Assembly (NCBI GenBank): GCA_964582985.1
Contig: CAZOUM010000024.1
Coordinates: 1-40,022, forward strand
DNA length: 40,022 nucleotides
Reading direction: 5' to 3'
Source of the DNA: an uncultured Pirellulales bacterium
GTDB lineage: Bacteria; Planctomycetota; Phycisphaerae; Sedimentisphaerales; Anaerobacaceae
Shown piece after piece: positions 1,910 through 32,142 of the stretch. The position numbers and the translations under genes were made by a program. Every line of letters starts with the position of its first letter. Positions within the stretch are counted from its first letter, which is position 1. The notes beneath the pieces were generated by a model. It made no database searches. It saw only the letters and a program-made list of their open reading frames with translations, and had not been told where the DNA came from.

Positions 1910-2011
1910 CCGTTACCTGGCAAATCCGGGCTTAGAAATTGCCAGCGGCCCCAAAACCTGCTATAAAAGTTGCTTGGTTGATATGTTACTTTGCCAGGCA
2001 AATCTTCAAAT

Positions 2012-3361
2012 ATGGAAAGTGGAAAAAACACAAACACAGGCAAACTGAACCGCCGTAACTTCTTAAAAACCTCGGCCGTCACCGCATTGGGGGCAGCTTC
2101 GGTGTTACCCCAGATAGTCCCATCGAGCGTGTTTGCCGCCAACACGCCAGGCAATCGCATCACGATTGGCTGCATCGGCGTAGGACGTATGGGACTCGGT
2201 GATATGCGCCAAATCTTGGGTTTCGACTACACCCAGGTTGTTGCCGTGTGCGATGTTGACTCAAACAGACTCGACTATGCCCGCCAGAAAGTCCAAGACC
2301 ATTACGCCGCCCGGAGCACCCACGGAACCTACAAAGGATGTGCGACATATAAAGATTTCAGAGACCTCCTCGACCGCAAGGATATCGACGCAGTTTTGAT
2401 TTGTACTCCTGACCACTGGCACGCGCTGCCCGCTATCGCCGCGGCCAAGGCCGGCAAGGACATCTTCATAGAAAAACCGCTGACCCTCACTGTTCAGGAA
2501 GGACGCATATTGAGCGACACCGTCCGCCGCTATGGCCGCATCTTACAGGTCGGCAGCCAGCAGCGCTCCGATTCAAGGTTTCGTTTTGCCTGCGAGCTGG
2601 TCCGCAATGGTCGCATCGGCAAGCTGCACACCGTAAAAGTCGGCCTGCCCATCGACCCCGGTACTGAGCCCCAGGCGTCAATGCCAATCCCAAAACAGCT
2701 CGATTACCAAATGTGGCTCGGCCCCACCCCATGGGCCGAATATACCGAGAAGCGCGTCCACCCCCGGGAAGGCTACGGCAGACCGGGATGGCTGCGCATC
2801 TCCGATTACTGCTGCGGAATGATTACGGGTTGGGGCTCACATCACATCGACATCGCCCAATGGGGTATGGCGGCCGAACATACCGGCCCAATCGAAGTAG
2901 AAGGCTGGGCCCAATATCCCAGGGACGGCCTCTGGAACGTCCACGGCAAGTTCCGCATCGAGTACACTTATGCCAACGGCGTCAAGCTCATCTGCGCGGA
3001 AAACACAAAGAACAAACAAGGCATTCTCTTCGAAGGAACAGATGGCTGGGTCTATGTCAAACGCAGAGTGATTGATGCGCAGCCAAAATCACTGTTGACC
3101 TCGCAAATCAGTCCGACTGAAATACGGCTTTACAAAAGCAGCAATCATAAACAGAACTTTCTTGATTGTATCAGAACGCGCTCTGAAACAGTCGCGCCCG
3201 TTGAAATCGGCCATCGCTCCAACACCGTTTGTCTCCTCGGTTACATTGCAATGCTCCTCGGCCGAAAGCTAAAATGGGACCCGAAAAAAGAACGATTCAC
3301 TAACGACCAGGAGGCCAATCGCATGCTCTCCAGACCAATGCGCAGCCCCTGGAGTCTATGA
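2012..3361 (+). CDS. Gfo/Idh/MocA-family NAD(P)-dependent oxidoreductase with TAT signal peptide
   Basis: ATG at 2012 (the ORF-track start at 1991 is a TTG). NRRNFLKTSAVTALGAASV is a TAT motif. A Rossmann IGCIGVGRMG motif and a CTPDHWHALPAIAAAKAGKDIFIEKPLT motif are typical of the family. Confidence 0.85.
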   Translation: MESGKNTNTGKLNRRNFLKTSAVTALGAASVLPQIVPSSVFAANTPGNRITIGCIGVGRMGLGDMRQILGFDYTQVVAVCDVDSNRLDYARQKVQDHYAARSTHGTYKGCATYKDFRDLLDRKDIDAVLICTPDHWHALPAIAAAKAGKDIFIEKPLTLTVQEGRILSDTVRRYGRILQVGSQQRSDSRFRFACELVRNGRIGKLHTVKVGLPIDPGTEPQASMPIPKQLDYQMWLGPTPWAEYTEKRVHPREGYGRPGWLRISDYCCGMITGWGSHHIDIAQWGMAAEHTGPIEVEGWAQYPRDGLWNVHGKFRIEYTYANGVKLICAENTKNKQGILFEGTDGWVYVKRRVIDAQPKSLLTSQISPTEIRLYKSSNHKQNFLDCIRTRSETVAPVEIGHRSNTVCLLGYIAMLLGRKLKWDPKKERFTNDQEANRMLSRPMRSPWSL

Positions 3362-3389: not shown

Positions 3390-4571
3390 ATGAATAAGAA
3401 AACCGTTCGCACCGGATTAGTCGGCGCGGGCTTCTCCGCAAAATTTCACTTTGAAGCCGTAAATAAGCTCTATGGAACTCAAGCACAGGTCCTCGGAGTC
3501 TACTGCCGCACAAAACAAACCCGCGAAGCCTTCGCGAAAAAACGCGGCATCCAGGCCTTCGACACTCTTGAGGCCCTGCTCGATAAAGTCGACGTCGTCC
3601 ACGTCTGCACTGCCCCCGTCTCGCACGAACCAATCGCAATCGCTGCCCTCGAGCGTGACAAGTTCGCCATAGTGGAAAAACCGCTGACCGGCTTTTTCGG
3701 TGACGGCTCGGAAGATTTCAACGGTGAAACCTTCCCCAAACAACAGGTCCTTGACCACGCTCTGGCCAGTATTGAGCGAATGCTTGACGCCGAAAAAAAC
3801 AGCAAAGGCAAAATCCTTTATGCAGAAAACTGGGTCTATGCGCCTTCCATTCAGAAGGAGCGCGAGATTATCGAAAAGACCGGCGCGCAGGTACTATGGA
3901 TGCATGGCGAGGAAGCGCATTCCGGCTCGCACGCAACAACCTACGGCTACTGGAAATTCTCCGGCGGCGGCGTAATGCTCAGCAAAGGATGTCACCCCCT
4001 CACCGGCGCACTTTATCTAAAGCGCGCCGAGGGCAAGGCACGAAACAAAAAGCCAATCCGACCAAAAACCGTCTCGGCCCGCATTCACGCCTTGACCCGA
4101 ATGAAAAACTTTCGGGACGAGGGACACATTCGCGCCAACTACCACGACATAGACGATTTCTCCATCATGCATCTTGTCTTCGAGGACGGCACCGTCGCCG
4201 ACATCGTCGCTTCCGACATTCTTATCGGAGGCATTCATAACTGGATTGAGGTCGCTGCAAACAACCATCGCACCATTTGCAACATCAACCCAAACACAGC
4301 TATGCAGACCTATAACCCCGTCGATGAGAATTTCAAGGACATATACGTTGTCGAAAAGACCGGCACCAAGCAGGGCTGGTCCACGCCCTCACCCGATGAG
4401 GACTGGTTCACAGGTTACCCACAGGAAATAGAAGCCTTCTATCGCACCGTCGCCTACGGCGAACCCGTCGAAAGTGACAGCCGCCTTGCCGCAGACTGCA
4501 TCTCGACAATCTACAGCGCGTATGTCTCAGCCGAAAAGGCCGGCGCAGAGGTCCCAATAAAAGTCTTTTGA
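3390..4571 (+). CDS. Gfo/Idh/MocA-family oxidoreductase (cytoplasmic paralog type)
   Basis: RBS AAGGAGAAC lies 8 nt upstream. Motifs GLVGAGFSAKFH ... VCTAPVSHEPIAIAALERDKFAIVEKPLTG are present. There is no signal peptide. Confidence 0.85.
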   Translation: MNKKTVRTGLVGAGFSAKFHFEAVNKLYGTQAQVLGVYCRTKQTREAFAKKRGIQAFDTLEALLDKVDVVHVCTAPVSHEPIAIAALERDKFAIVEKPLTGFFGDGSEDFNGETFPKQQVLDHALASIERMLDAEKNSKGKILYAENWVYAPSIQKEREIIEKTGAQVLWMHGEEAHSGSHATTYGYWKFSGGGVMLSKGCHPLTGALYLKRAEGKARNKKPIRPKTVSARIHALTRMKNFRDEGHIRANYHDIDDFSIMHLVFEDGTVADIVASDILIGGIHNWIEVAANNHRTICNINPNTAMQTYNPVDENFKDIYVVEKTGTKQGWSTPSPDEDWFTGYPQEIEAFYRTVAYGEPVESDSRLAADCISTIYSAYVSAEKAGAEVPIKVF

Positions 4572-7329: not shown

Positions 7330-7423
7330 CCTTAATCTTCTTGCAATCTTCACTCCGTGGATGTAAAGTGGTTTATTGTCTGAAGTTCATAGCTCGTAAA
7401 TCCGAAATCTATTACGGGCTCAT

Positions 7424-7494
7424 TGGGGAATAGTGTAACGGTAGCACGACTGACTCTGGATCAGTTAGTCCAGGTCCGAATCCTGGTTCCCCAG
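7424..7494 (+). tRNA. tRNA-Gln (anticodon CUG)
   Basis: Hand-folded cloverleaf. Acceptor stem TGGGGAA/TTCCCCA carries the U1:A72 pair and G73 discriminator characteristic of bacterial tRNA-Gln. U8 is present. D-stem is GTGT/GCAC with a GG in the loop. Anticodon stem is ACTGA/TCAGT with loop CTCTGGA (U33, CTG). T-stem is CCAGG/CCTGG with loop TCCGAAT (position 55 is C, which is atypical). No encoded CCA. Confidence 0.75.
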
Positions 7495-7570
7495 ATGCGA
7501 TTCACAAGATGCTAATCGCCGCCAGCATTTCGTCGAATCCCTACTGGCCGCGGAACATAGGAAGCAAGAA

Positions 7571-9362: not shown

Positions 9363-9391
9363 TTGACAAGTATTACTTTTACTGGGATAAT
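9363..9391 (+). promoter_or_regulatory. near-consensus sigma70 promoter (TTGACA-17-GATAAT)
   Basis: TTGACA 9363-9368, exact 17-nt spacer, GATAAT 9386-9391. It lies about 70 nt upstream of the small acidic ORF and the flotillin gene. Confidence 0.45.
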
Positions 9392-9461
9392 GACAACTGT
9401 TTTACTGTACGTAAGGATATTGAAAGTTAAGTTTATTTATTTGTGAAAGGAGATGAATCGT

Positions 9462-9581
9462 ATGGTTTGTGAAGAAAAACCTCAGGTTCCCGAAGAACCT
9501 CAAGAGACGCCATCGGAAAAGCCTCAAGAGGCGCCATCACAAGAGCCTCAACAGGCACCGGCGGAAACCGAAGAGAGTTAG
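9462..9581 (+). CDS. small acidic P/Q/E-repeat protein (39 aa), upstream partner of the flotillin-like gene
   Basis: RBS AAGGAG 9447-9452 with a 9-nt spacer to the ATG. Translation MVCEEKPQVPEEPQETPSEKPQEAPSQEPQQAPAETEES is a low-complexity PQE/PxE repeat. It falls below the ORF-track length cutoff. A hairpin follows. Confidence 0.4.
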   Translation: MVCEEKPQVPEEPQETPSEKPQEAPSQEPQQAPAETEES

Positions 9582-9592
9582 TATTTATTTGG

Positions 9593-9625
9593 GGAGGGAG
9601 CCAGATGCGCAGTCTGGCTCCCTCC
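9593..9625 (+). other. perfect 13-bp stem-loop (GGAGGGAGCCAGA-tgcgcag-TCTGGCTCCCTCC) between the small ORF and the flotillin gene
   Basis: Exact inverted repeat. No downstream U-tract, so it is not a canonical intrinsic terminator. Possibly an attenuator or processing hairpin. Confidence 0.4.
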
Positions 9626-9686
9626 TGTAATTGTGGAGCATACAACGAAACTGTATTTTTGACAATTTCTTGGAAAGGGGACTATT

Positions 9687-11198
9687 ATGAACGGTACATG
9701 GGAACGAATGCCTGTAAATAAGGCCATGGTAACTTTGATACTTGTTGTGGTGGCTTTGATTGTTTTGCTTGCCGTAATTGCCAGCTCGATTGTGAAAATT
9801 GACGGCGATGAAGTCGGGATAGTGGAGAAGAAACTGTTCGGCGGAGCCCTGCCCGAGGGAAAGGTTTTAGCGGTAAACGGAGAGAACGGCTTTCAGGCGC
9901 AGATTCTGGCGCCGGGCTGGCATGTCAAATGGAAATGGCAGTACAATGTTACCCAGATTAAGATGATCGAGATAAAAGAAGGCTTTGTGGGCCTGATACA
10001 GGCGGCGGACGGGCGAAGCCTGCCTGCCGACATAATTTATGCGCCGGAATGGGAAGATCTGGAAAGAATGCACAATGCCGACTATTTTCTCGGGGAAGGC
10101 AAAGGCTATAGTGGCCCGCAGCTTTCAGTCCTTCCCCCGAAAAAATACCGCATCAATACAAAGCTGTTTACCATAACACCTGTGCCGATAACAAATGTTA
10201 CGGTTGGCACGGTTGTGGTTATTAAAAGTAACGTGGGCGAAGCAGTTGACTCTGAAGACCGCCTGGTGGAGGTAGGCCAGAAAGGGGTATGGAAAAAGCC
10301 GTTAACAGAAGGAAAGTATAGACTACATACGAAAGCTTATGAAGCGACACCTGTCAGTATTCGGCAGGTCAAGGTCAGCTACACCGCCGAGAAAGAACAA
10401 GGTGAAGGCGAAGCCTATCAGCCTATGGAACCAATAAAGGTCCGCACTAAGGACGGCATTGAGTTTCCCGTAGCTGTTCGCATAACCTACAAAGTTGAAA
10501 GTGAAAATGCCCCTCGTATCGTTGCTTCGGTTGGCGATGATGCTATGGTCCTGACAAAGCTGGTAACTCCCGCCGTAAAATCGGTTTTCAGAAACAATGC
10601 CGAAAAGGTCAAGGCCCTGGATTATGTTCAGAACCGCTCAAAACAGGAACAGCAGAGCGCTGCAACGCTTAAAGAAAAATTGGCTGAATACGGCGTAACC
10701 ATTCTTGAAGTTCTCATTGATGATGTGGGTGACGAAAAAAGCATCGGGCTTGCTCGGATATTAAAAACCCAGAGCGACCGTGAAATAGCGCTGCAGGAAC
10801 AGGCGACATTTGAGGAACAGCAGCGTGCTGCGGAAAAACAAAAGGCTCTGACAAAAACACAGCAGGAAGCTGAAGAGGAAAAGCGGCTGGCAACTGCCAG
10901 ATACGACGTTCAGATCGCTGAGCAGGATAAGCAGAAAAGAATTATTGATGCACAGGCTGATGCTGAACGAATTCGGGTTACCGCTGAGGCCAAGGCTCAG
11001 GCTTATAGGAAGATTTCCGAGGTGATCGGCGCAAGCAATGCCGCTCTCATCGAGATTATGAAACTCGTCGAGGCCGGGAAAATCAGGATTACGCCGGAAG
11101 TAATGGTCGGCGGCGCGGGTGCAGGGATGACCGATGCGCTGATGGGAACTGTTCTCAGGGGGATGCTCGGCAAGGAGGCTGCTTCGAAGAAAAAATAA
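9687..11198 (+). CDS. flotillin-like SPFH/band-7 protein (FloA/YqiK-like)
   Basis: N-terminal TM segment (MVTLILVVVALIVLLAVIASS) followed by an SPFH-like domain. The C-terminal half is a long coiled coil (EQQRAAEKQKALTKTQQEAEEEKRLATARYDVQIAEQDKQKRIIDAQADAERIRVTAEAKAQAYRKISEV) typical of flotillins. Confidence 0.8.
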   Translation: MNGTWERMPVNKAMVTLILVVVALIVLLAVIASSIVKIDGDEVGIVEKKLFGGALPEGKVLAVNGENGFQAQILAPGWHVKWKWQYNVTQIKMIEIKEGFVGLIQAADGRSLPADIIYAPEWEDLERMHNADYFLGEGKGYSGPQLSVLPPKKYRINTKLFTITPVPITNVTVGTVVVIKSNVGEAVDSEDRLVEVGQKGVWKKPLTEGKYRLHTKAYEATPVSIRQVKVSYTAEKEQGEGEAYQPMEPIKVRTKDGIEFPVAVRITYKVESENAPRIVASVGDDAMVLTKLVTPAVKSVFRNNAEKVKALDYVQNRSKQEQQSAATLKEKLAEYGVTILEVLIDDVGDEKSIGLARILKTQSDREIALQEQATFEEQQRAAEKQKALTKTQQEAEEEKRLATARYDVQIAEQDKQKRIIDAQADAERIRVTAEAKAQAYRKISEVIGASNAALIEIMKLVEAGKIRITPEVMVGGAGAGMTDALMGTVLRGMLGKEAASKKK

Positions 11199-11457
11199 AT
11201 GACATCTATGATATAGATGCTGAAAGCTCAAAAGCCCTCGCTTTATTTTCAGCTTAATAAGAATGATTATCTTCCCTAAAAAGGAGGCCACCGCCGGTGA
11301 TGGCGATGGCCCAGCCCATATTCTGAGCTTGGAGGATTACACTCTTTCTACTACAAACGGCCCGTTAAGTCAAGCTAAATTTCAAACATTCCAATTTAGA
11401 ACCCGATGCGGCTCGGCTTCAGGGCGGCGATGGCGGGAAAAACGAGAAAAAACTTGA

Positions 11458-11486
11458 TTGACAAGCCTTGTAGTCTTTTCTATTAT
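11458..11486 (+). promoter_or_regulatory. near-consensus sigma70 promoter (TTGACA-17-TATTAT)
   Basis: TTGACA 11458-11463, 17-nt spacer, TATTAT 11481-11486. It drives the candidate structured RNA below. Confidence 0.45.
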
Positions 11487-11492
11487 GTCTAT

Positions 11493-11603
11493 GTTGCGAT
11501 TAGGCGATTGCGCCATAGTGGCCGGATTAGCCAGTAAAGTTATCGCAACAGGGAGACGGGGTGATGACAAGTTCAATCTAAATCCCTTGCGTCTCCCTTT
11601 TTT
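11493..11603 (+). ncRNA. candidate ~110-nt structured small RNA or riboswitch-like leader ending in an intrinsic terminator
   Basis: Starts about 7 nt after the -10 element. Closing helix GUUGCGAU (11493-11500) pairs with AUCGCAAC (11542-11549) and encloses two hairpins (GGCG-AUUG-CGCC and UGGC-CGGAUUA-GCCA). A terminator stem GGGAGACG (11551-11558) / CGUCUCCC (11590-11597) with a T6 run (11598-11603) follows immediately. The only ORF would read through the terminator, which argues against coding. Confidence 0.4.
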
Positions 11604-11646
11604 ACAGCATACAAAAGCATATTTTTGAAGCGGGTCTGCTTTTTCT

Positions 11647-11675
11647 TTGACTTTTCCGACCGAATAGCGTAGAAT
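11647..11675 (+). promoter_or_regulatory. sigma70-like promoter (TTGACT-17-TAGAAT) for the first beta-helix gene
   Basis: TTGACT 11647-11652, 17-nt spacer, TAGAAT 11670-11675. It lies downstream of the terminator above and about 160 nt upstream of the ATG at 11839. Confidence 0.3.
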
Positions 11676-11824
11676 TGTATTATGCTTGAATCCATCCGCT
11701 AAGAATTCAAGATGGACAAAATGGAGGAGTTATGCAGGACTATCAGCCTAAGGTCCCGGGGGGTTCATGAGTTGGTATTGGTGTGCACGGGGTGCGCTGA
11801 GAAATACTATATTAACTGTTTTTT

Positions 11825-13192
11825 AAGGAGGTAGCAAAATGGAAACGAAACGCAAAAGTGCAAAAGTGGTAGTGAGTTTACTGGCTTTGGTTGGGCTGGC
11901 GGTGTTTTCACTGTTCGCTGTCGGCGGTTCCTTGGAGCCGAGTGCGCCACCGGGGCCAACCATGAAGACACTCGATGAGGTCGAGCCGAGGATACCAATT
12001 CAGTCTCTCTCCGGTGATGCAAACGCAACATATATAATTGACCAACCCGGCTCGTATTATCTTGCTGGCGATGTCAACAATGCCGCTATAAACAAGCATG
12101 CCATAGTCGTTGAGGTGAACGATGTAACAATCGACCTGATGGGTTATCAACTGAAAGGCCCGGCTTCGCCGCCCCACTATGGCATATGGGCCCTCGCAGC
12201 CAGCAATGTAGAGGTCCGCAACGGTACGGTGCAGGACTTTTATTTCGGCATATATGCAGACAATAACGCGAACAAGTGCCGTATTCTCAACGTCAGGGTG
12301 ATAGAAAACAAGGGCGAGGGCATTTGGCTTTCCGGCTCTGGTCACCTCGTCAAGGATTGCACAGCTGTGGGTAATCATGTCACTGGCATCCGTATCGGTC
12401 CCGGCAGCACAGTAACCGGCAACACCTGTAACAGCAATGGCGAGAACGGCATCTACGCCAGCTCCGGCTCCACGGTGAGCGGCAACACCGCCTACGAGAA
12501 CGCCGGTCACGGCATTGATGCTGGTACCGGCTGCACAATCATTGGCAACACCGCCAGGATAAATACCGGCAATGGGATAGATTTCGAGGGCCTGGGCACT
12601 ATTGCCGATAACACCGCTGACCGTAACTCAGCGTACGGAATCAGCGTCAACTCAGGCGCTGTGGTGGCCCGCAATTCTTGCGCTGAGAATACACTCGACG
12701 GAATCAAAGCCGGAGACGGAAACCGTATTGTCGGGAATGACTGCGTCGGTAATGGTAACGTCGGAGATGGGGCCGGAATCCACGTGCAGTCGCAACGCAA
12801 TGTCATTATGGATAATACGGTACTGCAAAACGACCGGGGTATTGATGTGGACGCAGCCAACAACCTCATCGTCAAGAACAGTGCCTCAACCAACGGCACC
12901 GAGTACGACATAGCCGGAGGAAACAAAGTCGGCACCATAAGCACAAACCCTACTACTGCCGGACCCTGGGATAACTTCGATTTCTAAAACGATTAAACCT
13001 ATATATTGAAAAATTAGGAGACACAAAATGGAAACGAAACGCAAAAGTGCAAAAGTTGTGGTGAGTCTGCTGGCTTTGGCTGGGCTGCTGGTGTTTTCAC
13101 TGTTCGCTGTCGGCGGTTCTTTGCAGCCAAGCGCGCCGCCTGGGCCGACGATGAAAACACTGGATGAGGTCGAGCCGCGAATTCCGATTCCA
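11825..13192 (+). repeat. duplicated 5' module (about 180 nt: RBS/5'UTR plus the first ~55 codons), roughly 85% identical, at 11825-12003 and 13014-13192
   Basis: Direct DNA comparison of ggaggtagcaaaATGGAAACGAAACGCAAAAGTGCAAAAGTGGTAGTGAGTTTACTGGCTTTGG... with aggagacacaaaATGGAAACGAAACGCAAAAGTGCAAAAGTTGTGGTGAGTCTGCTGGCTTTGG... Downstream gene bodies diverge. Confidence 0.8.
11839..12987 (+). CDS. secreted right-handed parallel beta-helix repeat protein (pectate-lyase/NosD-like fold), paralog 1
   Basis: RBS AAGGAGG upstream. Signal peptide METKRKSAKVVVSLLALVGLAVFSLFAVGG is present. Repeated GNTxxxNxGxGI beta-helix rungs follow (GNHVTGIRIG.., GNTCNSNGENGIYA.., GNTAYENAGHGIDA.., GNTARINTGNGIDF..). 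Confidence 0.7.
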   Translation: METKRKSAKVVVSLLALVGLAVFSLFAVGGSLEPSAPPGPTMKTLDEVEPRIPIQSLSGDANATYIIDQPGSYYLAGDVNNAAINKHAIVVEVNDVTIDLMGYQLKGPASPPHYGIWALAASNVEVRNGTVQDFYFGIYADNNANKCRILNVRVIENKGEGIWLSGSGHLVKDCTAVGNHVTGIRIGPGSTVTGNTCNSNGENGIYASSGSTVSGNTAYENAGHGIDAGTGCTIIGNTARINTGNGIDFEGLGTIADNTADRNSAYGISVNSGAVVARNSCAENTLDGIKAGDGNRIVGNDCVGNGNVGDGAGIHVQSQRNVIMDNTVLQNDRGIDVDAANNLIVKNSASTNGTEYDIAGGNKVGTISTNPTTAGPWDNFDF

Positions 13193-13870
13193 TCAGCAGC
13201 GGGCCGTGACCCTGCTTCAACATTTATTATTAGCGAGTCTGGTTCCTATTATCTCACCGGCGATAGGTCATGCAGTGGAACCGGTATAGAAGTCATTGCT
13301 AATAATGTAACTATTGACTTAATGGGGTACAGTTTGATCGGGGCGGGCTCAGGGACAAACTACGGCATTTCTATGAACGGACGCAGCAACGTGGAAATCC
13401 GCAACGGCACAGTTCGCAACTTTTACTTTGGTATCTACGAGTATAACAGTACGACGGGCCAAAACCACCGGGTCATTGATGTCCGGTCCGTCTCCAATGG
13501 CCTGTATGGTATTGCTCTCAAGGGCACTGGCCATCTGATCAAGGACTGCACGGCGAGTGACAACGGAACTGGGGCTACCAGCATCGTCTACGGCATTTAT
13601 GCTGGCCACGGCTGTACAGTAATCGGCAACACGGCATACTACAACGGAACTTCGGCCACCGGCACCCACGTGCACGGCATCTATAACAACACCGGCTGTA
13701 CAGTAACCGGCAACACGGCATACTACAACGGAACTTCGGCTACCAGCATTGTCTTCGGCATCTTTCTTTCAGGAAGCTGTCTGGTAGACCAGAATACTGC
13801 CTATAATAACAACGGCATAAACATGAATAATCCTGGTAGCGGCGCATTTGGCATAAACTACGCTCCGTAA
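13028..13870 (+). CDS. secreted beta-helix repeat protein, paralog 2 (N-terminal 55 aa nearly identical to paralog 1)
   Basis: Same METKRKSAKVVVSLLALAGL...PSAPPGPTMKTLDEVEPRIPI module as paralog 1. The body is divergent with GNTAYYNGTSAT repeats. Confidence 0.7.
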   Translation: METKRKSAKVVVSLLALAGLLVFSLFAVGGSLQPSAPPGPTMKTLDEVEPRIPIPSAAGRDPASTFIISESGSYYLTGDRSCSGTGIEVIANNVTIDLMGYSLIGAGSGTNYGISMNGRSNVEIRNGTVRNFYFGIYEYNSTTGQNHRVIDVRSVSNGLYGIALKGTGHLIKDCTASDNGTGATSIVYGIYAGHGCTVIGNTAYYNGTSATGTHVHGIYNNTGCTVTGNTAYYNGTSATSIVFGIFLSGSCLVDQNTAYNNNGINMNNPGSGAFGINYAP

Positions 13871-14621: not shown

Positions 14622-14735
14622 TCACCAGTCGAACTCAGCAACAATAGGTGTGTGGTCGCTGACGCCGTGATATCGAATACCACCGTGAACATTTCCGCTC
14701 GGACGCCGGCAAGTGTGCAGAACACAGCTAAAGTC
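14622..14735 (-). pseudogene. orphan 3'-end fragment of an exonuclease III (xth) paralog
   Basis: My translation of the minus strand gives ..CVLHTCRRPSGNVHGGIRYHGVSDHTPIVAEFDW*. Compare the C-terminus of the intact xth at 15565 (..CWACYIDKEPRLAERPSDHTPIVAEFDW*). Upstream stops truncate the fragment. The two copies differ at synonymous sites, so the divergence is old. Confidence 0.5.
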
Positions 14736-14809: not shown

Positions 14810-15436
14810 ATGAAAACTGCGATTTGCGCGTCTCTTATTGTCTTGTGCACTTTAGTATGTTCATGCGAGTCATTGTTAAGCCTGCGTGAAACTAATTCTT
14901 CTGCTTGGGTGAGTTTTCATAAAGAAGCTGCCGTCGTCCGAAATGGATACAAAATGGTCCAAAGACTTGAACCCTCTACCTATGTCCGAAGTGTATACGT
15001 CCAAAGAAAATCAGACAAAAAACCCGTGCTTTTCTACACTCATGGGCGCCGAATCAAAGCTGCACTCGGACACCAGCGTCAACTGGTGCTTATCAACGAT
15101 TATTTTGCTACAAAAGCCTGTAAGGTCATGGTTGCAAATATCGACTCCGGGAACAATTGGAGGATAGATGAAAAAATATGCGAGCAACATATGCGCACCG
15201 CTCCAAAGCAGTGGCTCCCCTACCACGCAATCCCCAAAGCGATAGCTTTTTCACCGGACGACAAAATGGTGCTCATGGCAATGAAATCAGGTTATGTAGC
15301 TGGCTCTGCAGAAGAAGCGGATGACTTCGGAAAAAGATTCAAGCTTTGGTCATACGTTGTTGATTCTACCAACGGAACTGTGCTACATGTATACCAGACA
15401 AACGGAACTGTCCCCCGCAATTGGTGGAAATTTTAA
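14810..15436 (+). CDS. hypothetical secreted protein or lipoprotein (208 aa)
   Basis: N-terminus MKTAICASLIVLCTLVCSCES carries a signal peptide with Cys residues. It sits between the xth 3' fragment and the intact xth gene. Confidence 0.5.
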   Translation: MKTAICASLIVLCTLVCSCESLLSLRETNSSAWVSFHKEAAVVRNGYKMVQRLEPSTYVRSVYVQRKSDKKPVLFYTHGRRIKAALGHQRQLVLINDYFATKACKVMVANIDSGNNWRIDEKICEQHMRTAPKQWLPYHAIPKAIAFSPDDKMVLMAMKSGYVAGSAEEADDFGKRFKLWSYVVDSTNGTVLHVYQTNGTVPRNWWKF

Positions 15437-15564: not shown

Positions 15565-16335
15565 TTACCAGTCGAATTCCGCGACTATCGGCGTGTGGTC
15601 GCTCGGCCGCTCCGCAAGCCGCGGCTCTTTGTCTATATAGCACGCCCAACACTTCTCAGCCAGAGGCTTAGTAGCCATAATATGGTCTAACCGCCAGCCA
15701 AGATTACGTTTGAACGAATTTCTCATTCTATAGTCCCAGAACGTATATTGCCCCGCCTCCCTGCAATGCATCCTGAACACATCAACAAATCCCCAGCTCA
15801 TAACCTCCTTCAACGCCCTATGAACCTCCGGATGATAACAGACGTGCCCCAACAAGCTCTCCGCGTCATACACATCTATCGCTTCCGGCGCTATATTCAA
15901 GTCCCCTACCCAAAGAACAGCATCAGTTGACTCGAAGTTCTCACCGAAATACCTCCGCAGCCGCTCAAACCACTTTAGCTTGTACTCGAACCGCTCGGAC
16001 CCCGCCATATACCCCTGCGGCACATAAGTATTGACCATAACTACGCCCCCAATTTCCGCTCTTATAAGCCTCGCCTCATCCTTCGGCTCATCATCGAACC
16101 CAAATTGCACGTTTGCTATCTCACTTCTGCTGAAAATCGCCACCCCATTATAGCTCTTTTGCCCTTTGAACACATATTTGTACTCAGTCTTATCAAACGC
16201 ATCTCTCGGGAAGTCAACATCCTGTACCTTGGTTTCCTGCACGCACAAAACATCCGGCCGATGTTGCCCAAGCCACTCAAGAACCACAGGCAGCCGGGCC
16301 CGCAAAGAATTGACGTTAAAGCTCGCAACCTTCAT
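15565..16335 (-). CDS. xth: exodeoxyribonuclease III / AP endonuclease (Xth family)
   Basis: MKVASFNVNSLRARLPVVLEWL..DVLCVQETK... ends ...SDHTPIVAEFDW, a classic ExoIII/EEP-fold sequence of typical length (256 aa). Confidence 0.9.
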   Translation of the reverse strand: MKVASFNVNSLRARLPVVLEWLGQHRPDVLCVQETKVQDVDFPRDAFDKTEYKYVFKGQKSYNGVAIFSRSEIANVQFGFDDEPKDEARLIRAEIGGVVMVNTYVPQGYMAGSERFEYKLKWFERLRRYFGENFESTDAVLWVGDLNIAPEAIDVYDAESLLGHVCYHPEVHRALKEVMSWGFVDVFRMHCREAGQYTFWDYRMRNSFKRNLGWRLDHIMATKPLAEKCWACYIDKEPRLAERPSDHTPIVAEFDW

Positions 16336-16426: not shown

Positions 16427-16456
16427 TTGGCAGGACGGCAAAAAACTTTGTATAAT
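16427..16456 (+). promoter_or_regulatory. sigma70 promoter with extended -10 (TTGGCA-18-TGTATAAT)
   Basis: TTGGCA 16427-16432; TG at -15/-14; TATAAT 16451-16456. It lies upstream of the entericidin-like gene. Confidence 0.35.
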
Positions 16457-16544
16457 ATTATCAGACGCTTGGCGGGTTCCGCAAAGAGTCTTTGGATTTG
16501 GTTGTTGAGCTGAAAATTTGGTAGCAATAAAAGGAGCCTGTAGG

Positions 16545-16682
16545 ATGGTTAAAAAGATGCTTTTGGCGGTTGCACTAATTGTCACGGCGTTTTTACTGAT
16601 AGGCTGCAAAACTACTCAGGGACTGGGCGAAGACATTAAGTGGGTCGGTGAGAAAGGCTCCGACGTCGTTGACCAGGAATAA
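16545..16682 (+). CDS. entericidin A/B-family small lipoprotein (45 aa)
   Basis: RBS AAGGAG 16531-16536 with an 8-nt spacer. MVKKMLLAVALIVTAFLLIGCKTTQGLGEDIKWVGEKGSDVVDQE matches the entericidin pattern (signal + C-(N/K)T(T/A)(R/Q)G-(V/L)GEDI..G). Below ORF-track cutoff. Confidence 0.6.
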   Translation: MVKKMLLAVALIVTAFLLIGCKTTQGLGEDIKWVGEKGSDVVDQE

Positions 16683-22898: not shown

Positions 22899-23933
22899 AT
22901 GATTTTGAGGAACAGTAAATGCAAAATACTATTGCTCGGATTACTGTTCCTGGGAGCAGCAAATTTATCAATCAAAGGATGCTCTTCCTCTGGGAAAAAA
23001 CAGTCAAATATGGTTGTGCTTGCAGACCTGCCTATGCTGGATGATCCCTACTATATTGTAATTCCGGTAACCATAAATTCACGGCAATACAGATTTATTA
23101 TCGACACTGCCTCCGGTAACACAATAGTCGATAGCAAGTTAAAATCGTTATTAGGTGATTTTGTCAAGAAAGAAAAGCGCCCCGTTACACCGAAACAGAA
23201 GCAGGTGGACTTCGAGTTTTATAATTTTCCCAAGCAATTCGAAATAGGCTCTTTAAATCTTAAGGGTACGATTGCCTGTTTCGACTTGTGCGTGGCTGGC
23301 CTCCCTCCAGACTATAACTACGACGGCATAATAGGAATGAATCTTCTATATGATGAAGTGTTGCAATTGGATATTGAGAACAAGTGTGTTCGGCTCCTAA
23401 GATGGCGTAAGACTGCTTCACAAAATACAGAAGACTTTAGACAAAAATGGGGACATCCTGTTCAAATAATAAAAAATGAAGCGGGTTGGCCGCAAATCAA
23501 CTTAAATTTAACTGACACGATAACTGAACTGTTCTTAGTTGATACGGGACTTAGTGCTCATAACCGGCTACGCGAAAGTACTTTTGACAAATTAAAGGGC
23601 TTGGACGGAATTGAGTATTATAAATACAGCAAACAGCAAATGGGAGCACTTGTTCGTGAACAAGGTCTATCACTTATCAATCCTTCCGACTTAGAGGAAA
23701 CAGAGGTAGTATTTATCAGCCAAGCGCCGTTGCCTGGCATTGACCTTCCGAATCTTTGCTTTGAGAAGAAGCACGTCTCGATTCTGGGGATTAAATTTGT
23801 AAGGCTTTTTAAAATGATGACGTTCGACTTTAAAAACAGCAGGCTTTACTTAAAACCGGTGCCTGTTGAAGTTAAACGTTATAAGGATACAGGCGATACT
23901 TTAAATATTAAACGTCAAATGAGGAATAATTGA
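22899..23933 (+). CDS. secreted, probably lipoprotein, two-lobed retropepsin/pepsin-like aspartic peptidase-domain protein (clan AA-like)
   Basis: ATG at 22899 with an AAGGTG RBS. Signal MILRNSKCKILLLGLLFLGAANLSIKGC. Two hydrophobic-hydrophobic-D-T-(A/G) catalytic-type motifs are FIIDTASGNTIVD and FLVDTGLSAHN. The gene is about 40% GC against about 55% in its neighbours. Confidence 0.5.
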   Translation: MILRNSKCKILLLGLLFLGAANLSIKGCSSSGKKQSNMVVLADLPMLDDPYYIVIPVTINSRQYRFIIDTASGNTIVDSKLKSLLGDFVKKEKRPVTPKQKQVDFEFYNFPKQFEIGSLNLKGTIACFDLCVAGLPPDYNYDGIIGMNLLYDEVLQLDIENKCVRLLRWRKTASQNTEDFRQKWGHPVQIIKNEAGWPQINLNLTDTITELFLVDTGLSAHNRLRESTFDKLKGLDGIEYYKYSKQQMGALVREQGLSLINPSDLEETEVVFISQAPLPGIDLPNLCFEKKHVSILGIKFVRLFKMMTFDFKNSRLYLKPVPVEVKRYKDTGDTLNIKRQMRNN

Positions 23934-24095
23934 ACCGCAGAAGAAGCAACTTTTCTCTCAGGTTAGAATCCCGTTGAGGTTGTCGATAACAAGGTAAGGA
24001 TTCATCCGGTAGAATAAGGGCAAGAAAAGTCACTTGATAGGATGGTTGAAATTTTACCGTCAAAACAGTAATGGTCATTGCAAGGCTTGCCAAGT

Positions 24096-24137
24096 CCCGC
24101 ACCAATTAGGCGTGAGCCTAAGCACAATTGGTGCGGG
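24096..24137 (+). promoter_or_regulatory. perfect 12-bp inverted repeat CCCGCACCAATT-N18-AATTGGTGCGGG upstream of nifU
   Basis: Exact reverse-complement arms at 24096-24107 and 24126-24137, 93 nt before the nifU ATG. It may be an operator or a terminator/processing stem. No U-tract follows. Confidence 0.4.
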
Positions 24138-24229
24138 ATGGCAATCTCACACGTTATGCTTTATACTGTTTAGCGCCGTCTGCAAGCCGATTTCGAACAG
24201 GCGCTAAAGGCAAGTCAGAGGTAAAGAAT

Positions 24230-28677: not shown

Positions 28678-28939
28678 AGTATTCGGCACTTCTTATTATT
28701 ACGCCCTGCCGGATAAAGTGCTTGTTACGAATCCAACCAACTGCTATTGTGCTTCCTCTAACCAATAGTTCGCAAACTCGGCAAAGTCGCGCATGTTCAC
28801 TATACCGTCCGCATTGGCGTCCCACCTTTGCGCAGCTAACCATTTTGGCACGTTACCAACAAGAATGACACAATCAGCTCCCTGACTCCGCCTATGCGTA
28901 CTTCAATTATAACATTCTATCTTATATTTCAAGTGGAGC

Positions 28940-29095
28940 CCCACGGGCATAGCCCGTGGCACCTCCATCTTCGGCGGAACCCGCCGAAGCATCCGCCTAC
29001 GCTAAAGCTTCGGCGGATACCTTTTTCGCATTCATCCACGGGTAAAACCCATGGCTTTCTGCGAAGGCGGGTAAAAAAACCTATTTTTTAAAAAA
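28940..29095. other. cluster of perfect palindromes with alternative pairing potential (candidate structured RNA or REP-like element)
   Basis: CCACGGGC-ATA-GCCCGTGG (28943-28961) and CTTCGGCGG-AAC-CCGCCGAAG (28966-28986), with a third CTTCGGCGG copy near 29008-29016 able to pair alternatively with the middle arm. ATCCGCC..GGCGGAT, a second CCACGGG, and an A7/T6 tract (29073-29091) are also present. Confidence 0.35.
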
Positions 29096-29199
29096 TTTGG
29101 CCCCATCTTTTATTGTCGGCCGCCTCATCCAAAAACCCCTAAATGCCCTCAAATACACGCCGGCAACTTACCGCCGGAAATAGGTTGCGGATAGGCATC

Positions 29200-31545
29200 T
29201 TACCGTATCGCGAGTTTCGCCTGCTCAAGCCAGGTCGACGCCTTCGGCACAAGCTCAAAGCCTAAAGCAGCCAATGCAGCTTCCAGATTTTCAATGCTTT
29301 TCTCTAAAGCTTCTTTGGACCGCTCACCCTGTTCTATCGCCGTGTATATCTCATACCTCGCCGTGACAATATCGCTATAACTCAAATTGCCATAATCCGT
29401 CGTCCTGAGCATCTGCTCTAATGCCTCGTACGCTTGCCGCTCTTTCTTCAGCATATCATCAATCTTTTTCCACGCCTCAACTTTCTCACGTATAGCACGT
29501 TCGATATTATCGACGGCAGTTCCTGGACTTACCGGCAAACCACGGCCACTCGACCCGTTTTCATAGAGTTTCCGAATCTCCTCAGCAGATAAAGCCCGGT
29601 CATAGATGCGGACGTCATCGATTTTACCGTTCCAGGAACACCCATCCCAGGCCTTTCCTATCAGCGCTGTATTAGATGCATTAGAAGTCCCTTCCGAGAA
29701 TAATTTGCTGTCTTTTTCAACACTATTAACATACAGTCTCCAATCAGAGCCATCCCAGGTCATGGCAACATGATGCCAGCTTCCAACGCGGAAAGTACCT
29801 GCTGCAAACGTCAGATGACCGAGGTACATGTCATTTTGAACCGAAGCCCAGCCGCCACCGTCTCCATGTACTCTCAATCCTAATTCTCCACCAATCCAAT
29901 TATTTGCTCCTATTATGTAAGCAAAGTTCCTGCCGCCACAGGTCTCACTTAGGTCGGCAGCAAACGCCCACGCCATAAAAGTGCCTTTAGCCAGATTGTG
30001 CATTACCGTATTTCCTATGCTCACGTAATCCCCACTGCCGTCAAAATCAAGTGCGTAGTCACCTATCTGTCCAGCCACCCACTCCGGATCCCCGTTCAGC
30101 ATGCCGTCGTTATTGCCGACCGAATCGTATGCTATATCCCCCTCGCCCTCATCAAACTCCCAGTGGGCTATCGGCCCCACTCCCTCCAGGTAGAATACCT
30201 CGATTTCTTCGGCAGTCAACGCCCGGTTATAGACCTGCACATCATCGATCATGCCGTTGAAGAAATAGCCTCTACCTAAAGGGTTCTCCCTGCAGCCAAC
30301 ATAGACTTTCGACGATTTTCCCGTAACCACACCTGCTGTTGCCCCTGTGTTCTCCGGTGCTCCGTCGATGTAGAGTATTTTTGTTGAACCGTCCCTGACA
30401 GCCACGATATGGGTCCACCGGCCTTGATAACCATCATTCGACCACAAATGCTCGTCGGTTGCCCATTGTCCTGTAGGATTTGTATAGAAATCTATTCTTC
30501 CGTTGGGGTCCTGATAAACGACCCATTGCCGGCCATCGCCGCCATAGTTGTATTTGCTGACGACGTCACCGTAGCCGCCGTATGCCGAGTGAGGCCCTTG
30601 GGTGTAGAACCACGCTGCAATGGTGAAATTAGCGTCGCCGAATTCGAATTCGTCGATATCCCCAAAGTCGACGCAATCACCGTCACCATCAAAATCAAGT
30701 GCGTAGTCACCAACCTGTCCAGCCACCCACTCCGGGTCCCCGTTCAGGATACCATCGTTGTCGCCAGCCGAATCAAACGCTGTTATCCCACTGCCTTCAT
30801 CAAACTCCCAGTGAGCGACCAGACCGCCCGCGCCCTCCTGATAGAGTTGCGAAACTTCTTCGGCAGATAAAGCCCGGTTATAGACGCGCACATCATCAAT
30901 CTTCCCGTCAAAACAAATATCCTGGTAATGGCTGGTTCCGATACTTGCATTAGCACTCGAATAGGCCAAACTTCCTCCGCTTCCACTGTATGTTCCGCCA
31001 TCATCCACGCCGTTAACATACACGTCCATATCTGTCGCGCCTCTTACCACTCCAGCGACGTGATACCATGTATCCGTATCAAGTGCTCTTGTTCCTGTCT
31101 TGCTTCTTCTGTACGCTGGGCCCGAACCGTTGCCATCGCCAATACTAATTGTCGCATGACCGCTGTTGTCGATCAGCAGTGTCACTCCGTAATATATTGA
31201 CGAACTCTCATCCAGACATATAACAACGACACTATTTCGCGAAAGATTAATCCATGCCGAGAGCGTTACTGGCAGAGGCGGTTTCAAGCTGCTGTCATTG
31301 CCCAAATCAACATAGTCATCCACACCATCAAAGCCCAACGCCCCACCAATCTGACCACTTGTCCAGAGCGGACCGTTGATCAGCGTCCCGTGATTGCCAC
31401 CAACCGAATCATACGCGGTTGTTCCCGCGCCTTCGTCAAACTCCCACCAGCTAACAAGATTCGGCTCAGCCCACACAAGCCCAGAAAGGGCCAAAAGGCT
31501 CAAGACCAATGCAATTACCACACCGAAATTCGCTTTACTTGCCAT
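29200..31545 (-). CDS. secreted triple LamG/concanavalin-A-like lectin domain protein with C-terminal coiled-coil
   Basis: Signal MASKANFGVVIALVLSLLALSGLVWA. Three repeats follow the pattern (L/I)(V/A)(S/H)WWEFDEGxGxxA(Y/F)DSxGxN(H/D)GxLxNG(P/D)(L/E)W(T/V)(S/A)GQ(I/V)G(G/D)(A/Y)ALxFDGxxDxVxxG(N/D) (Laminin_G_3-like). The repeats are visible at DNA level. The last ~130 aa are heptad-rich. Confidence 0.8.
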   Translation of the reverse strand: MASKANFGVVIALVLSLLALSGLVWAEPNLVSWWEFDEGAGTTAYDSVGGNHGTLINGPLWTSGQIGGALGFDGVDDYVDLGNDSSLKPPLPVTLSAWINLSRNSVVVICLDESSSIYYGVTLLIDNSGHATISIGDGNGSGPAYRRSKTGTRALDTDTWYHVAGVVRGATDMDVYVNGVDDGGTYSGSGGSLAYSSANASIGTSHYQDICFDGKIDDVRVYNRALSAEEVSQLYQEGAGGLVAHWEFDEGSGITAFDSAGDNDGILNGDPEWVAGQVGDYALDFDGDGDCVDFGDIDEFEFGDANFTIAAWFYTQGPHSAYGGYGDVVSKYNYGGDGRQWVVYQDPNGRIDFYTNPTGQWATDEHLWSNDGYQGRWTHIVAVRDGSTKILYIDGAPENTGATAGVVTGKSSKVYVGCRENPLGRGYFFNGMIDDVQVYNRALTAEEIEVFYLEGVGPIAHWEFDEGEGDIAYDSVGNNDGMLNGDPEWVAGQIGDYALDFDGSGDYVSIGNTVMHNLAKGTFMAWAFAADLSETCGGRNFAYIIGANNWIGGELGLRVHGDGGGWASVQNDMYLGHLTFAAGTFRVGSWHHVAMTWDGSDWRLYVNSVEKDSKLFSEGTSNASNTALIGKAWDGCSWNGKIDDVRIYDRALSAEEIRKLYENGSSGRGLPVSPGTAVDNIERAIREKVEAWKKIDDMLKKERQAYEALEQMLRTTDYGNLSYSDIVTARYEIYTAIEQGERSKEALEKSIENLEAALAALGFELVPKASTWLEQAKLAIR

Positions 31546-32142
31546 TCTTCTATCCTTTCGAAAATGTATGACATTAAATTATGCCGCCATAGTCATCATA
31601 GCTAATAGACATCAGCCAGCAAATTTCGTTACGAAACTTACTTCACTTTTTGGGATTTTTTTTCGAAACTGTCGACTTAGCGTAAGCACATTCGTACCTC
31701 TCTGTAAAACTTCGCGAAACTCTCCCAATAGAGCCGGATTTTGCCACATCAGCTCTGTAACTACGTCTCCTACACTACAATTATAACATTTTTCCTCTTT
31801 TTCAAGTAAAAGAAACTATTCTATAAAAAATTTTACGTGACCTCTTATCTTCAACGAGCCTATCCAAAAACCGGCATATACCGTAAAATATCCGGCCTGA
31901 TGCACTCTGGAGAATTGTAACCAACATCGCTTAGGCTCAAAATCTCTGCAGCAATTCTGTCGATACTAAATGTAAACGAAGCTGTAGTCTCTGTGTACCT
32001 TCGGACATGGTTATCTCAGGGCAGTCCGCACACGAGAAATTGCCATTGCGTCCGACGCGAAGGAAGTTTAAAATACGCTCCCAAATGGTCGTAGTTAAGT
32101 GCCAACAACCATAAATACTTGTATTTTTTGAGTGACGGTCAG

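Follow-up and report, generated by a model that had tools for sequence, protein, structure and literature searches.

Among stand-alone small RNAs (sRNAs) that end at an intrinsic terminator, the enterobacterial, Hfq-dependent SdsR, RseX and ArrS are close described counterparts of the element that we analyze here, which occupies positions 11458–11603 (plus strand) of contig CAZOUM010000024.1 (assembly GCA_964582985.1). The contig comes from an uncultured Sedimentisphaerales-like planctomycete, and the whole stretch of 40,022 nt is referred to below as the window. Like these sRNAs, the candidate combines a sigma-70-type promoter with a length of ~100 nt and no open reading frame (ORF), and it shares with them a 3′ end made of a GC hairpin and a U tail, with an available single-stranded terminator loop (cf. 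PMC11979758). It differs from them in its host, in its ~22-nt terminator loop, in having its 5′ end locked in a three-way junction instead of offering a free seed, and in that no homologues were found for it in the related loci searched. A different arrangement is known from DapZ and MicL, sRNAs that start at an internal promoter in the 3′ part of an mRNA and end at its terminator. Here, too, the predicted promoter (promoter P1) lies past a stop codon, that of a gene for an SPFH/Band 7 protein, and the terminator would be common to mRNA and sRNA, but the arrangement appears to stem from a rearrangement that destroyed the original terminator and not from a conserved 3′ untranslated region.

Two further kinds of structured RNA invite comparison. 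In three-way-junction riboswitches with purine-riboswitch architecture, as in the candidate, a closing helix surrounds two hairpins and a terminator follows directly, and the candidate also has an alternative hairpin of equal energy at intermediate transcript lengths. It differs from them in matching no Rfam family, in its smaller junction (57 nt), in the lack of any loop–loop complementarity that we could see, in not being conserved in the loci compared, and in having a promoter between element and gene. SreA and SreB of Listeria are prematurely terminated leaders that act in trans. A structured 5′ domain with a terminator, forming a short RNA beside an operon, is predicted here as well, but no relationship between the candidate and the real leader of that operon could be detected: a profile of 19 such leaders finds nothing in 11440–11630, even with all filters off and a search space of 191 nt. 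To our knowledge, no genetic system exists for Phycisphaerae and Sedimentisphaerales, and hardly any regulatory RNAs are known from them.

An sRNA gene is expected to have its own promoter directly upstream, a GC-rich hairpin with a 3′ U run, no protein-coding potential, and conservation or covariation in related genomes. In this case, a predicted promoter with 11 of 12 consensus positions lies directly upstream, an 8-bp stem is followed by U6, and coding potential is absent except for a five-codon mini-ORF; neither conservation nor covariation was found in the loci examined. We regard the element as real and non-random, and most likely as a small RNA of an ordinary kind, specific to its lineage, or as a leftover that is transcribed, and not as a riboswitch. 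The reading that we favor, with a probability of roughly 0.45, is that of a stand-alone, lineage-specific, self-contained sRNA gene.

Promoter, three-way junction and terminator

The element is made up of the following parts.

11436–11457, plus strand: A-rich tract GGAAAAACGAGAAAAAACTTGA, adjoining the −35 box on its upstream side, as read from the sequence
11458–11486, plus strand: promoter P1, with TTGACA (11458–11463), a 17-nt spacer and TATTAT (11481–11486); 11 of 12 consensus positions
11493–11549, plus strand: three-way junction of 57 nt; minimum free energy (MFE) fold identical to the centroid, −20.3 kcal/mol, z = −3.0
11493–11500 with 11542–11549, plus strand: closing helix of the junction (helix P1), GUUGCGAU pairing with AUCGCAAC
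11503–11514, plus strand: hairpin P2 of the junction, GGCG-AUUG-CGCC, loop AUUG
11516–11536, plus strand: hairpin P3 of the junction, UA.UGGC-CGGAUUA-GCCA.UA, loop CGGAUUA
Between these helices, plus strand: linking strands UA, A and AAGUU
11550–11603, plus strand: predicted terminator hairpin with U6, whose perfect 8-bp GC stem is formed by GGGAGACG (11551–11558) and CGUCUCCC (11590–11597)
11550–11558 with 11590–11598, plus strand: lower stem of the terminator
11559–11561 with 11585–11587, plus strand: upper stem of the terminator (GGG/CCC)
11564–11581, plus strand: five-codon mini-ORF in the terminator loop, encoding MTSSI (AUG ACA AGU UCA AUC UAA), with GGGAG 8 nt upstream, inside the stem
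11598–11603, plus strand: U6 tail

Among these are the signals that a model had pointed out from the letters of the DNA alone (the sequence-only reading): a TTGACA-17-TATTAT promoter at 11458, a closing helix around two short hairpins within 7 nt of it, and a terminator with U6 directly after the junction. All of them are present where that reading had placed them. The distance between TATTAT and the closing helix is 6 nt (GTCTAT), and the predicted start, G11493, which is the seventh nucleotide past the −10 box, is also the first base of the helix. The A-rich tract upstream resembles an UP element and may act as one.

Promoters that match the consensus at 11 or more of 12 positions are found six times on the two strands of the window, compared with 0.4 ± 0.6 times in 200 dinucleotide shuffles (~15-fold enrichment), and five of the six are intergenic. 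Because others of the same quality directly precede genes, namely an entericidin-like lipoprotein gene and a small acidic ORF, near-consensus sigma-70 promoters appear to be used in the host organism. The acidic ORF (9453–9581), which lies with its promoter in 9363–9630, encodes 42 amino acids, is rich in proline and has its own terminator; the lipoprotein gene (16545–16682; 45 amino acids) lies with its promoter in 16427–16682. Another of the 11/12 promoters (9659–9688) has its end on the start codon of the SPFH gene, so that the SPFH mRNA may be leaderless or its true start may lie farther downstream.

For the RNA as a whole, the folding energy is −41.9 kcal/mol (z = −3.7), a stability that none of 200 shuffles attained, and the fold described above is both its MFE and its centroid structure. 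Among 3,419 GC-matched 111-nt segments of the contig, only 14 folded as stably. The terminator by itself has z = −2.5. GC-rich stems of 8 bp or more that are perfectly paired and run into T5 are represented in the window by the hairpin at 11550–11603 alone, against 0.11 occurrences expected, and none of 200 shuffles had a promoter with a terminator of this kind in the 200 nt after it. The loops of hairpins P2 and P3 (AUUG and CGGAUUA) show no complementarity to each other that we could see. Only two GGA motifs are present in the RNA, one in the P3 loop and the other at the foot of the terminator stem (ACAGGGAG), and we therefore rejected a protein-sequestering sRNA of the CsrB/Rsm type, which requires many GGA motifs displayed in loops.

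We found no known RNA family that accounts for the element. Scanning the whole window with Rfam 15 at gathering thresholds returned a tRNA at 7424–7494 and no family for the candidate; with E-values of up to 10 allowed for 11200–11900, two chance-level matches were obtained, a snoRNA (E = 6; 18.7 bits, threshold 43) and a CRISPR direct repeat (E = 8.9; 14.8 bits, threshold 39). ARAGORN likewise reported only the tRNA-Gln at 7423–7495, and with its thresholds lowered to 60–80% it produced only aberrant models around the candidate. A tRNA, tmRNA or tRNA-like element was rejected on these grounds, in that no cloverleaf was found by ARAGORN and the closing helix holds two arms, not three. Six-frame translation of the RNA region yielded short ORFs of implausible composition and no credible one, and Pfam had no match to them at E-values of up to 10; the mini-ORF in the terminator loop may be a coincidence of the G-rich stem. 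The candidate RNA is single-copy, with one match in the window at up to 3 mismatches and no second copy in a further ~20 kb of this genome that flanks it, and this single-copy status speaks against a repeat element such as a CRISPR, a REP-like sequence or the end of a mobile element.

Junction DNA behind a broken SPFH terminator

The surroundings of the element consist of these features.

9687–11198, plus strand: gene for an SPFH/Band 7 protein, the upstream neighbor
11219–11253, plus strand: remnant of the SPFH intrinsic terminator, with its 5′ half kept; similarity to relatives ends at 11253
11254–11636, no strand assigned: junction DNA of ~385 nt without a counterpart in any related locus, holding the whole unit of promoter P1, RNA and terminator
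11647–11675, plus strand: promoter P2 (TTGACT, 17 nt, TAGAAT; 10 of 12 positions), which serves the beta-helix operon itself and lies outside the RNA
11682–11838, plus strand: conserved beta-helix 5′ leader of ~160 nt, with a hairpin (11780–11798), a U run and a Shine-Dalgarno sequence; not part of the RNA
11839–12987, plus strand: gene for a secreted right-handed beta-helix protein, the downstream neighbor
13028–13870, following the gene at 11839–12987: a beta-helix paralogue

For the comparison with relatives, we used 171 protein-anchored loci of ~1.1 Mb in total (688,305 + 348,187 + 81,788 bases). They include an SPFH-anchored set of 80 species-representative loci and one 88%-identical relative, and a beta-helix-anchored set of 82 loci (3 exact look-ups and 79 metagenome loci). 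The SPFH homologues carry the labels Sedimentisphaerales, Phycisphaerae or Planctomycetota. What the relatives (the 80 loci and the 88%-identical one) have in common with the window past the SPFH stop codon is limited to the first ~54 nt. In relatives, the SPFH terminator is intact (AAAAAGCCCTCACCTTATTTTCAGGCGAGGGCTTTTTTT), its canonical form being AAAAAGCCCTCACC...GGCGAGGGCTTTTTTT, as seen, for example, at L081:7504–7580, L044:835–910 and L001:5498–5575, whereas the window has AAAAGCCCTCGCTTTATTTTCAG followed by unrelated sequence. Judging from this alignment, the break after 11253 marks a rearrangement breakpoint, and, since one half of the SPFH terminator is lost past that position and nothing beyond it has a counterpart, the candidate RNA sits in junction DNA of a rearrangement. 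We also considered that 11254–11640 might be an insertion, in which case the lost half of the terminator should reappear at the other end of it, and rejected this because the window holds no copy of CAGGCGAGGGCTTTTTT at up to 3 mismatches. Promoter P1 begins 260 nt past the SPFH stop codon (11198), and a standard scan found no other plus-strand terminator between that codon and 11603.

No trace of the RNA was found in relatives. A covariance model built from the single sequence and its fold recovered only the element itself across the 171 loci, with no match in 688 kb of SPFH loci and none in the 348 kb that contain the 82 closest beta-helix relatives, and blastn and nhmmer detected no similarity to the RNA in them, the genome and metagenome collections having been scanned for the protein anchors and not for the RNA itself. 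In the beta-helix-anchored set, the RNA is absent upstream of all 82 loci. Viral contigs gave 0 matches to two DNA patterns (loop-only and terminator-loop), and phages and plasmids gave no blastn match. Across 11199–11840, six further contigs of this species match the window with 100% identity; there is thus no variation among same-species copies.

Some other observations concern this part of the window. On the minus strand, the junction DNA carries a terminator-like hairpin (11312–11285; 11 pairs, of which 8 are G-C, then CCUUUUUAGG) that is the top-listed one in a terminator scan of the first 20 kb and has no minus-strand gene upstream of it. Farther downstream, a 37-nt fragment from the 3′ end of an endonuclease/exonuclease/phosphatase gene (15567–15603) is duplicated at 14624–14660 with 84% identity, in the gap before the gene at 14810–15436, as another trace of local rearrangement.

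Promoter P2 and a conserved beta-helix leader

The second promoter that the sequence-only reading had placed at 11647–11675 was confirmed with 10 of 12 positions, and it belongs to a conserved module. Beta-helix homologues with enough upstream sequence have an equivalent strong promoter ~150–170 nt before their start codon, and a profile of 19 homologous promoter and leader regions matches 11637–11850 (E = 1.9e-25), a span that covers promoter P2, the leader and the first codons. With nhmmer, the leader has 38 matches, all of them on the gene strand. It is better conserved than the protein, as the proteins of genes that share it are only 40–68% identical. Its core reads GGAGG..GGTGATGA..CTCTATTAGCC.AATTCTGCGAAATTTTACGAG..TATCGGTGCGCACAGGGCGCACCGTGAAATATTAAC..TTTTTGAAAGG, in which CTCTATTAGCC.AATTCTGCGAAATTTTACGAG is an invariant block. 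The leader hairpin (11780–11798) is 89% paired, with a few compensatory changes; outside it, the leader is conserved in sequence without predicted structure, and reading frames are not kept. The 5′ half of the leader also precedes a LamG-domain gene on the minus strand (29200–31545; module at 31811–31695), and the module recurs in loci L090–L167 (e.g. L122:3745–3904, L102:2040–2194 and L113:285–448). The module has no Rfam match, and promoter and leader together are a candidate for cis-regulation of this secreted-protein family. The 3′ half of the RNA shares GGTGATGA...CAATC...TTGCG...TTTTAC with the leader by eye, but we rejected the idea that it is a diverged copy, to which the profile search gives no support.

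The DNA upstream of this module is variable. In an orthologous locus with ~80–86% DNA identity (L091), promoter and leader are kept and the upstream sequence is unrelated; runs of GCGTATT-type heptamers stand upstream of the operon promoter in this locus (100–150) and in L090 (890–930), and four tandem 60-nt repeats do so in L095 (40–240). The genes themselves are also mixed in their relationships. The tandem paralogues of the window (11839–13870) are 87% identical over their first 167 nt, and of the L090 gene, the 3′ half is 91% identical to the window gene and the 5′ half 68%, in other words the homologues are mosaics, which suggests recombination among paralogues. Two other structured stretches on the minus strand were recorded. 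No part of the window is more structured than a 251-nt chain of GC-rich hairpins (28860–29110; −107.7 kcal/mol, z = −7.2; no Rfam match), which is found just 3′ of the LamG gene. In the gap between a gene ending at 23933 and nifU, which starts at 24128, there is a long hairpin with almost perfect pairing (24040–24180; z = −5.2).

Competing explanations and significance

If the element is a self-contained sRNA gene, RNA polymerase with the housekeeping sigma factor would start from promoter P1 at about G11493, and the transcript would fold into the 57-nt three-way junction and stop at the GC-rich hairpin and U6, giving an RNA of ~109–111 nt. Through the rearrangement, the junction DNA (~385 nt) would have come to separate the SPFH gene from the beta-helix operon, with loss of the 3′ half of the SPFH terminator. 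Given that the ancestral terminator is broken and that no other one was found on the plus strand before 11603, the hairpin should also end SPFH transcripts, for which it would be the first strong stop. The RNA itself would most likely act in trans, through the exposed terminator loop of ~22 nt, the 7-nt P3 loop and the AAGUU junction strand. In E. coli, the loops of sRNA terminators can have a regulatory role (PMC11979758).

Several observations weigh against an sRNA gene. With z = −5.4, the fold of the reverse strand is at least as stable, so that it is the promoter and the U tail, and not the fold, that assign the strand; a minus-strand transcript was nevertheless rejected, as nearby promoter matches on that strand reach only 8 of 12 positions. 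The arms of the terminator are 31 nt apart and enclose an apical region of ~22 nt that is essentially unpaired, which is atypical for an intrinsic terminator. This large loop explains why the hairpin is missing from a standard terminator scan (loops of 3–8 nt), and it makes the efficiency of the predicted terminator uncertain. As the related loci (~1.1 Mb) yielded no homologue and the six copies from the species itself do not differ, there is no sign of selection on the sequence or the fold of the RNA. Duplex folding against the 31 translation start regions of the window, in a scan that ignores intramolecular structure, gave −67.0 kcal/mol compared with −65.9 ± 3.2 kcal/mol for shuffled RNAs, so that no target emerged from it. 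Rearrangement-junction DNA of unknown origin can, moreover, carry promoter and terminator signals without function, and for a single-genome candidate without a sign of selection, general importance is low on present evidence. The proposal of the sequence-only reading that the element is an independent sRNA is partly supported, as the simplest account of the promoter, the U tail at ~111 nt, the absence of an ORF and the separate promoter P2; selection on the fold is not seen, and the homologous intergenic regions, in which covariation was to be looked for, do not carry the element at all.

The same facts can be explained by a leftover, in which promoter and hairpin arrived with the junction DNA, for instance as the stump of a lost transcription unit that may be transcribed or silent, and in which the three-way junction has no function. 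The only selected role would then be that of a terminator that replaces the truncated SPFH one and shields the beta-helix operon from read-through. This explanation agrees with the position of the element exactly within 11254–11636, in DNA that has no counterpart in relatives and begins inside the broken SPFH terminator; with regions upstream of beta-helix operons that differ in every relative (60-nt tandem repeats, heptamer repeats); with the lack of any homologue or variation in the material searched; and with the further rearrangement trace nearby (the duplicated fragment at 14624–14660). It accounts less well for a near-consensus promoter whose start lies at the foot of a stable junction (z = −3.0), which is more order than a random stump should have, and a terminator alone needs no promoter 65 nt upstream. 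We consider a leftover the main rival, less likely than an sRNA gene but far from negligible. A riboswitch or attenuator acting in cis, which the sequence-only reading had allowed for as a control on read-through into the gene at 11839, is disfavored and in our estimate quite improbable. In such a system, the junction would sense a ligand or factor and gate the passage of transcripts from promoter P1 and the SPFH gene into the beta-helix operon. The architecture does resemble an aptamer followed by a terminator, and at transcript ends of ~11568–11574 an alternative hairpin, formed by GUUAUCGC (11539–11546) and GGUGAUGAC, is as stable as the junction (−22.1 versus −22.0 kcal/mol) and encloses the 5′ arm of the terminator in its loop, so that it could serve as an antiterminator. 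Once the RNA has its full length, however, folds in which either terminator arm is unpaired are ~9 kcal/mol less stable than the terminator fold. Furthermore, the operon's conserved promoter P2 stands between element and gene, and together with the conserved leader it excludes the RNA from the beta-helix transcription unit, which argues against a riboswitch or attenuator for that gene. The element is also absent upstream of 82 of 82 beta-helix loci, including the ~80–86%-identical orthologous one, and has no Rfam match even at E-values of up to 10; riboswitch classes are normally widespread, whereas this element is a singleton. Attenuation by a leader peptide, in which a ribosome on the MTSSI ORF (11564–11581) would open the stem and modulate termination, is hardly credible: the ORF lies wholly within the terminator loop and GGGAG precedes its AUG by 8 nt, but this ribosome-binding sequence is locked in the 8-bp stem, G-rich terminator arms mimic a Shine-Dalgarno sequence by chance, nothing is conserved, and promoter P2 makes read-through unnecessary.

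An origin from, or pairing with, another gene of the window was also weighed. Exact words of 8–11 nt on both strands link the RNA (11493–11603) to 3614–3675, the region of the Rossmann and EKP motifs in a Gfo/Idh/MocA oxidoreductase gene (3390–4571); the sense words are TGACAAGTTC, CGCCATAGTGG and ATCGCAA, and the antisense words are GAGACGGGG and GCGATTGCG/TTGCGATT. The RNA could accordingly be a scrambled relic of a fragment of such a gene, or an antisense partner of the 3390–4571 mRNA. The shared words cover 41 of 70 nt, while the maximum in 300 shuffles of the RNA was 34, and among 400 random genomic 111-mers a coverage of 41 was reached by true paralogous repeats only. In addition, the sense words are in frame in ORF 11458–11628, of which tblastn aligns 29 residues with 34% identity to the EKP region of a paralogue (1991–3361). 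This alignment is not significant, however, with E = 0.68 in a database of 642 nt, and the ORF has no Pfam match. The shared words do not keep their order and fall on both strands, which is in part due to the self-complementarity of the RNA, and words like GCCATAGTG recur elsewhere in the window; as for antisense pairing, the segments of the RNA that are complementary to the gene are engaged in its own stems, and they would pair 225 nt downstream of the start of the coding region. The cluster could thus reflect a decayed gene fragment, an antisense relationship or chance, and we give the first two together a probability about as low as that of a riboswitch. Lower again, and in our view highly improbable, is the idea of a new class of RNA in which the 57-nt junction does the sensing or binds a protein, and which controls the secreted, leader-sharing beta-helix and LamG proteins, in trans or by regulated read-through; if true, it would tie an orphan RNA to a lineage-wide regulon of surface proteins in Phycisphaerae.

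A useful by-product of the analysis is the module of promoter and leader before beta-helix and LamG genes, which recurs in many uncultured relatives and is not represented in Rfam. For the sRNA gene that we favor, the meaning depends on expression. If expressed, the RNA would join the very small number of sRNA candidates that have been described from Phycisphaerae or Sedimentisphaerales, and it would show clearly how an RNA gene can reside in DNA that a recent rearrangement has created.

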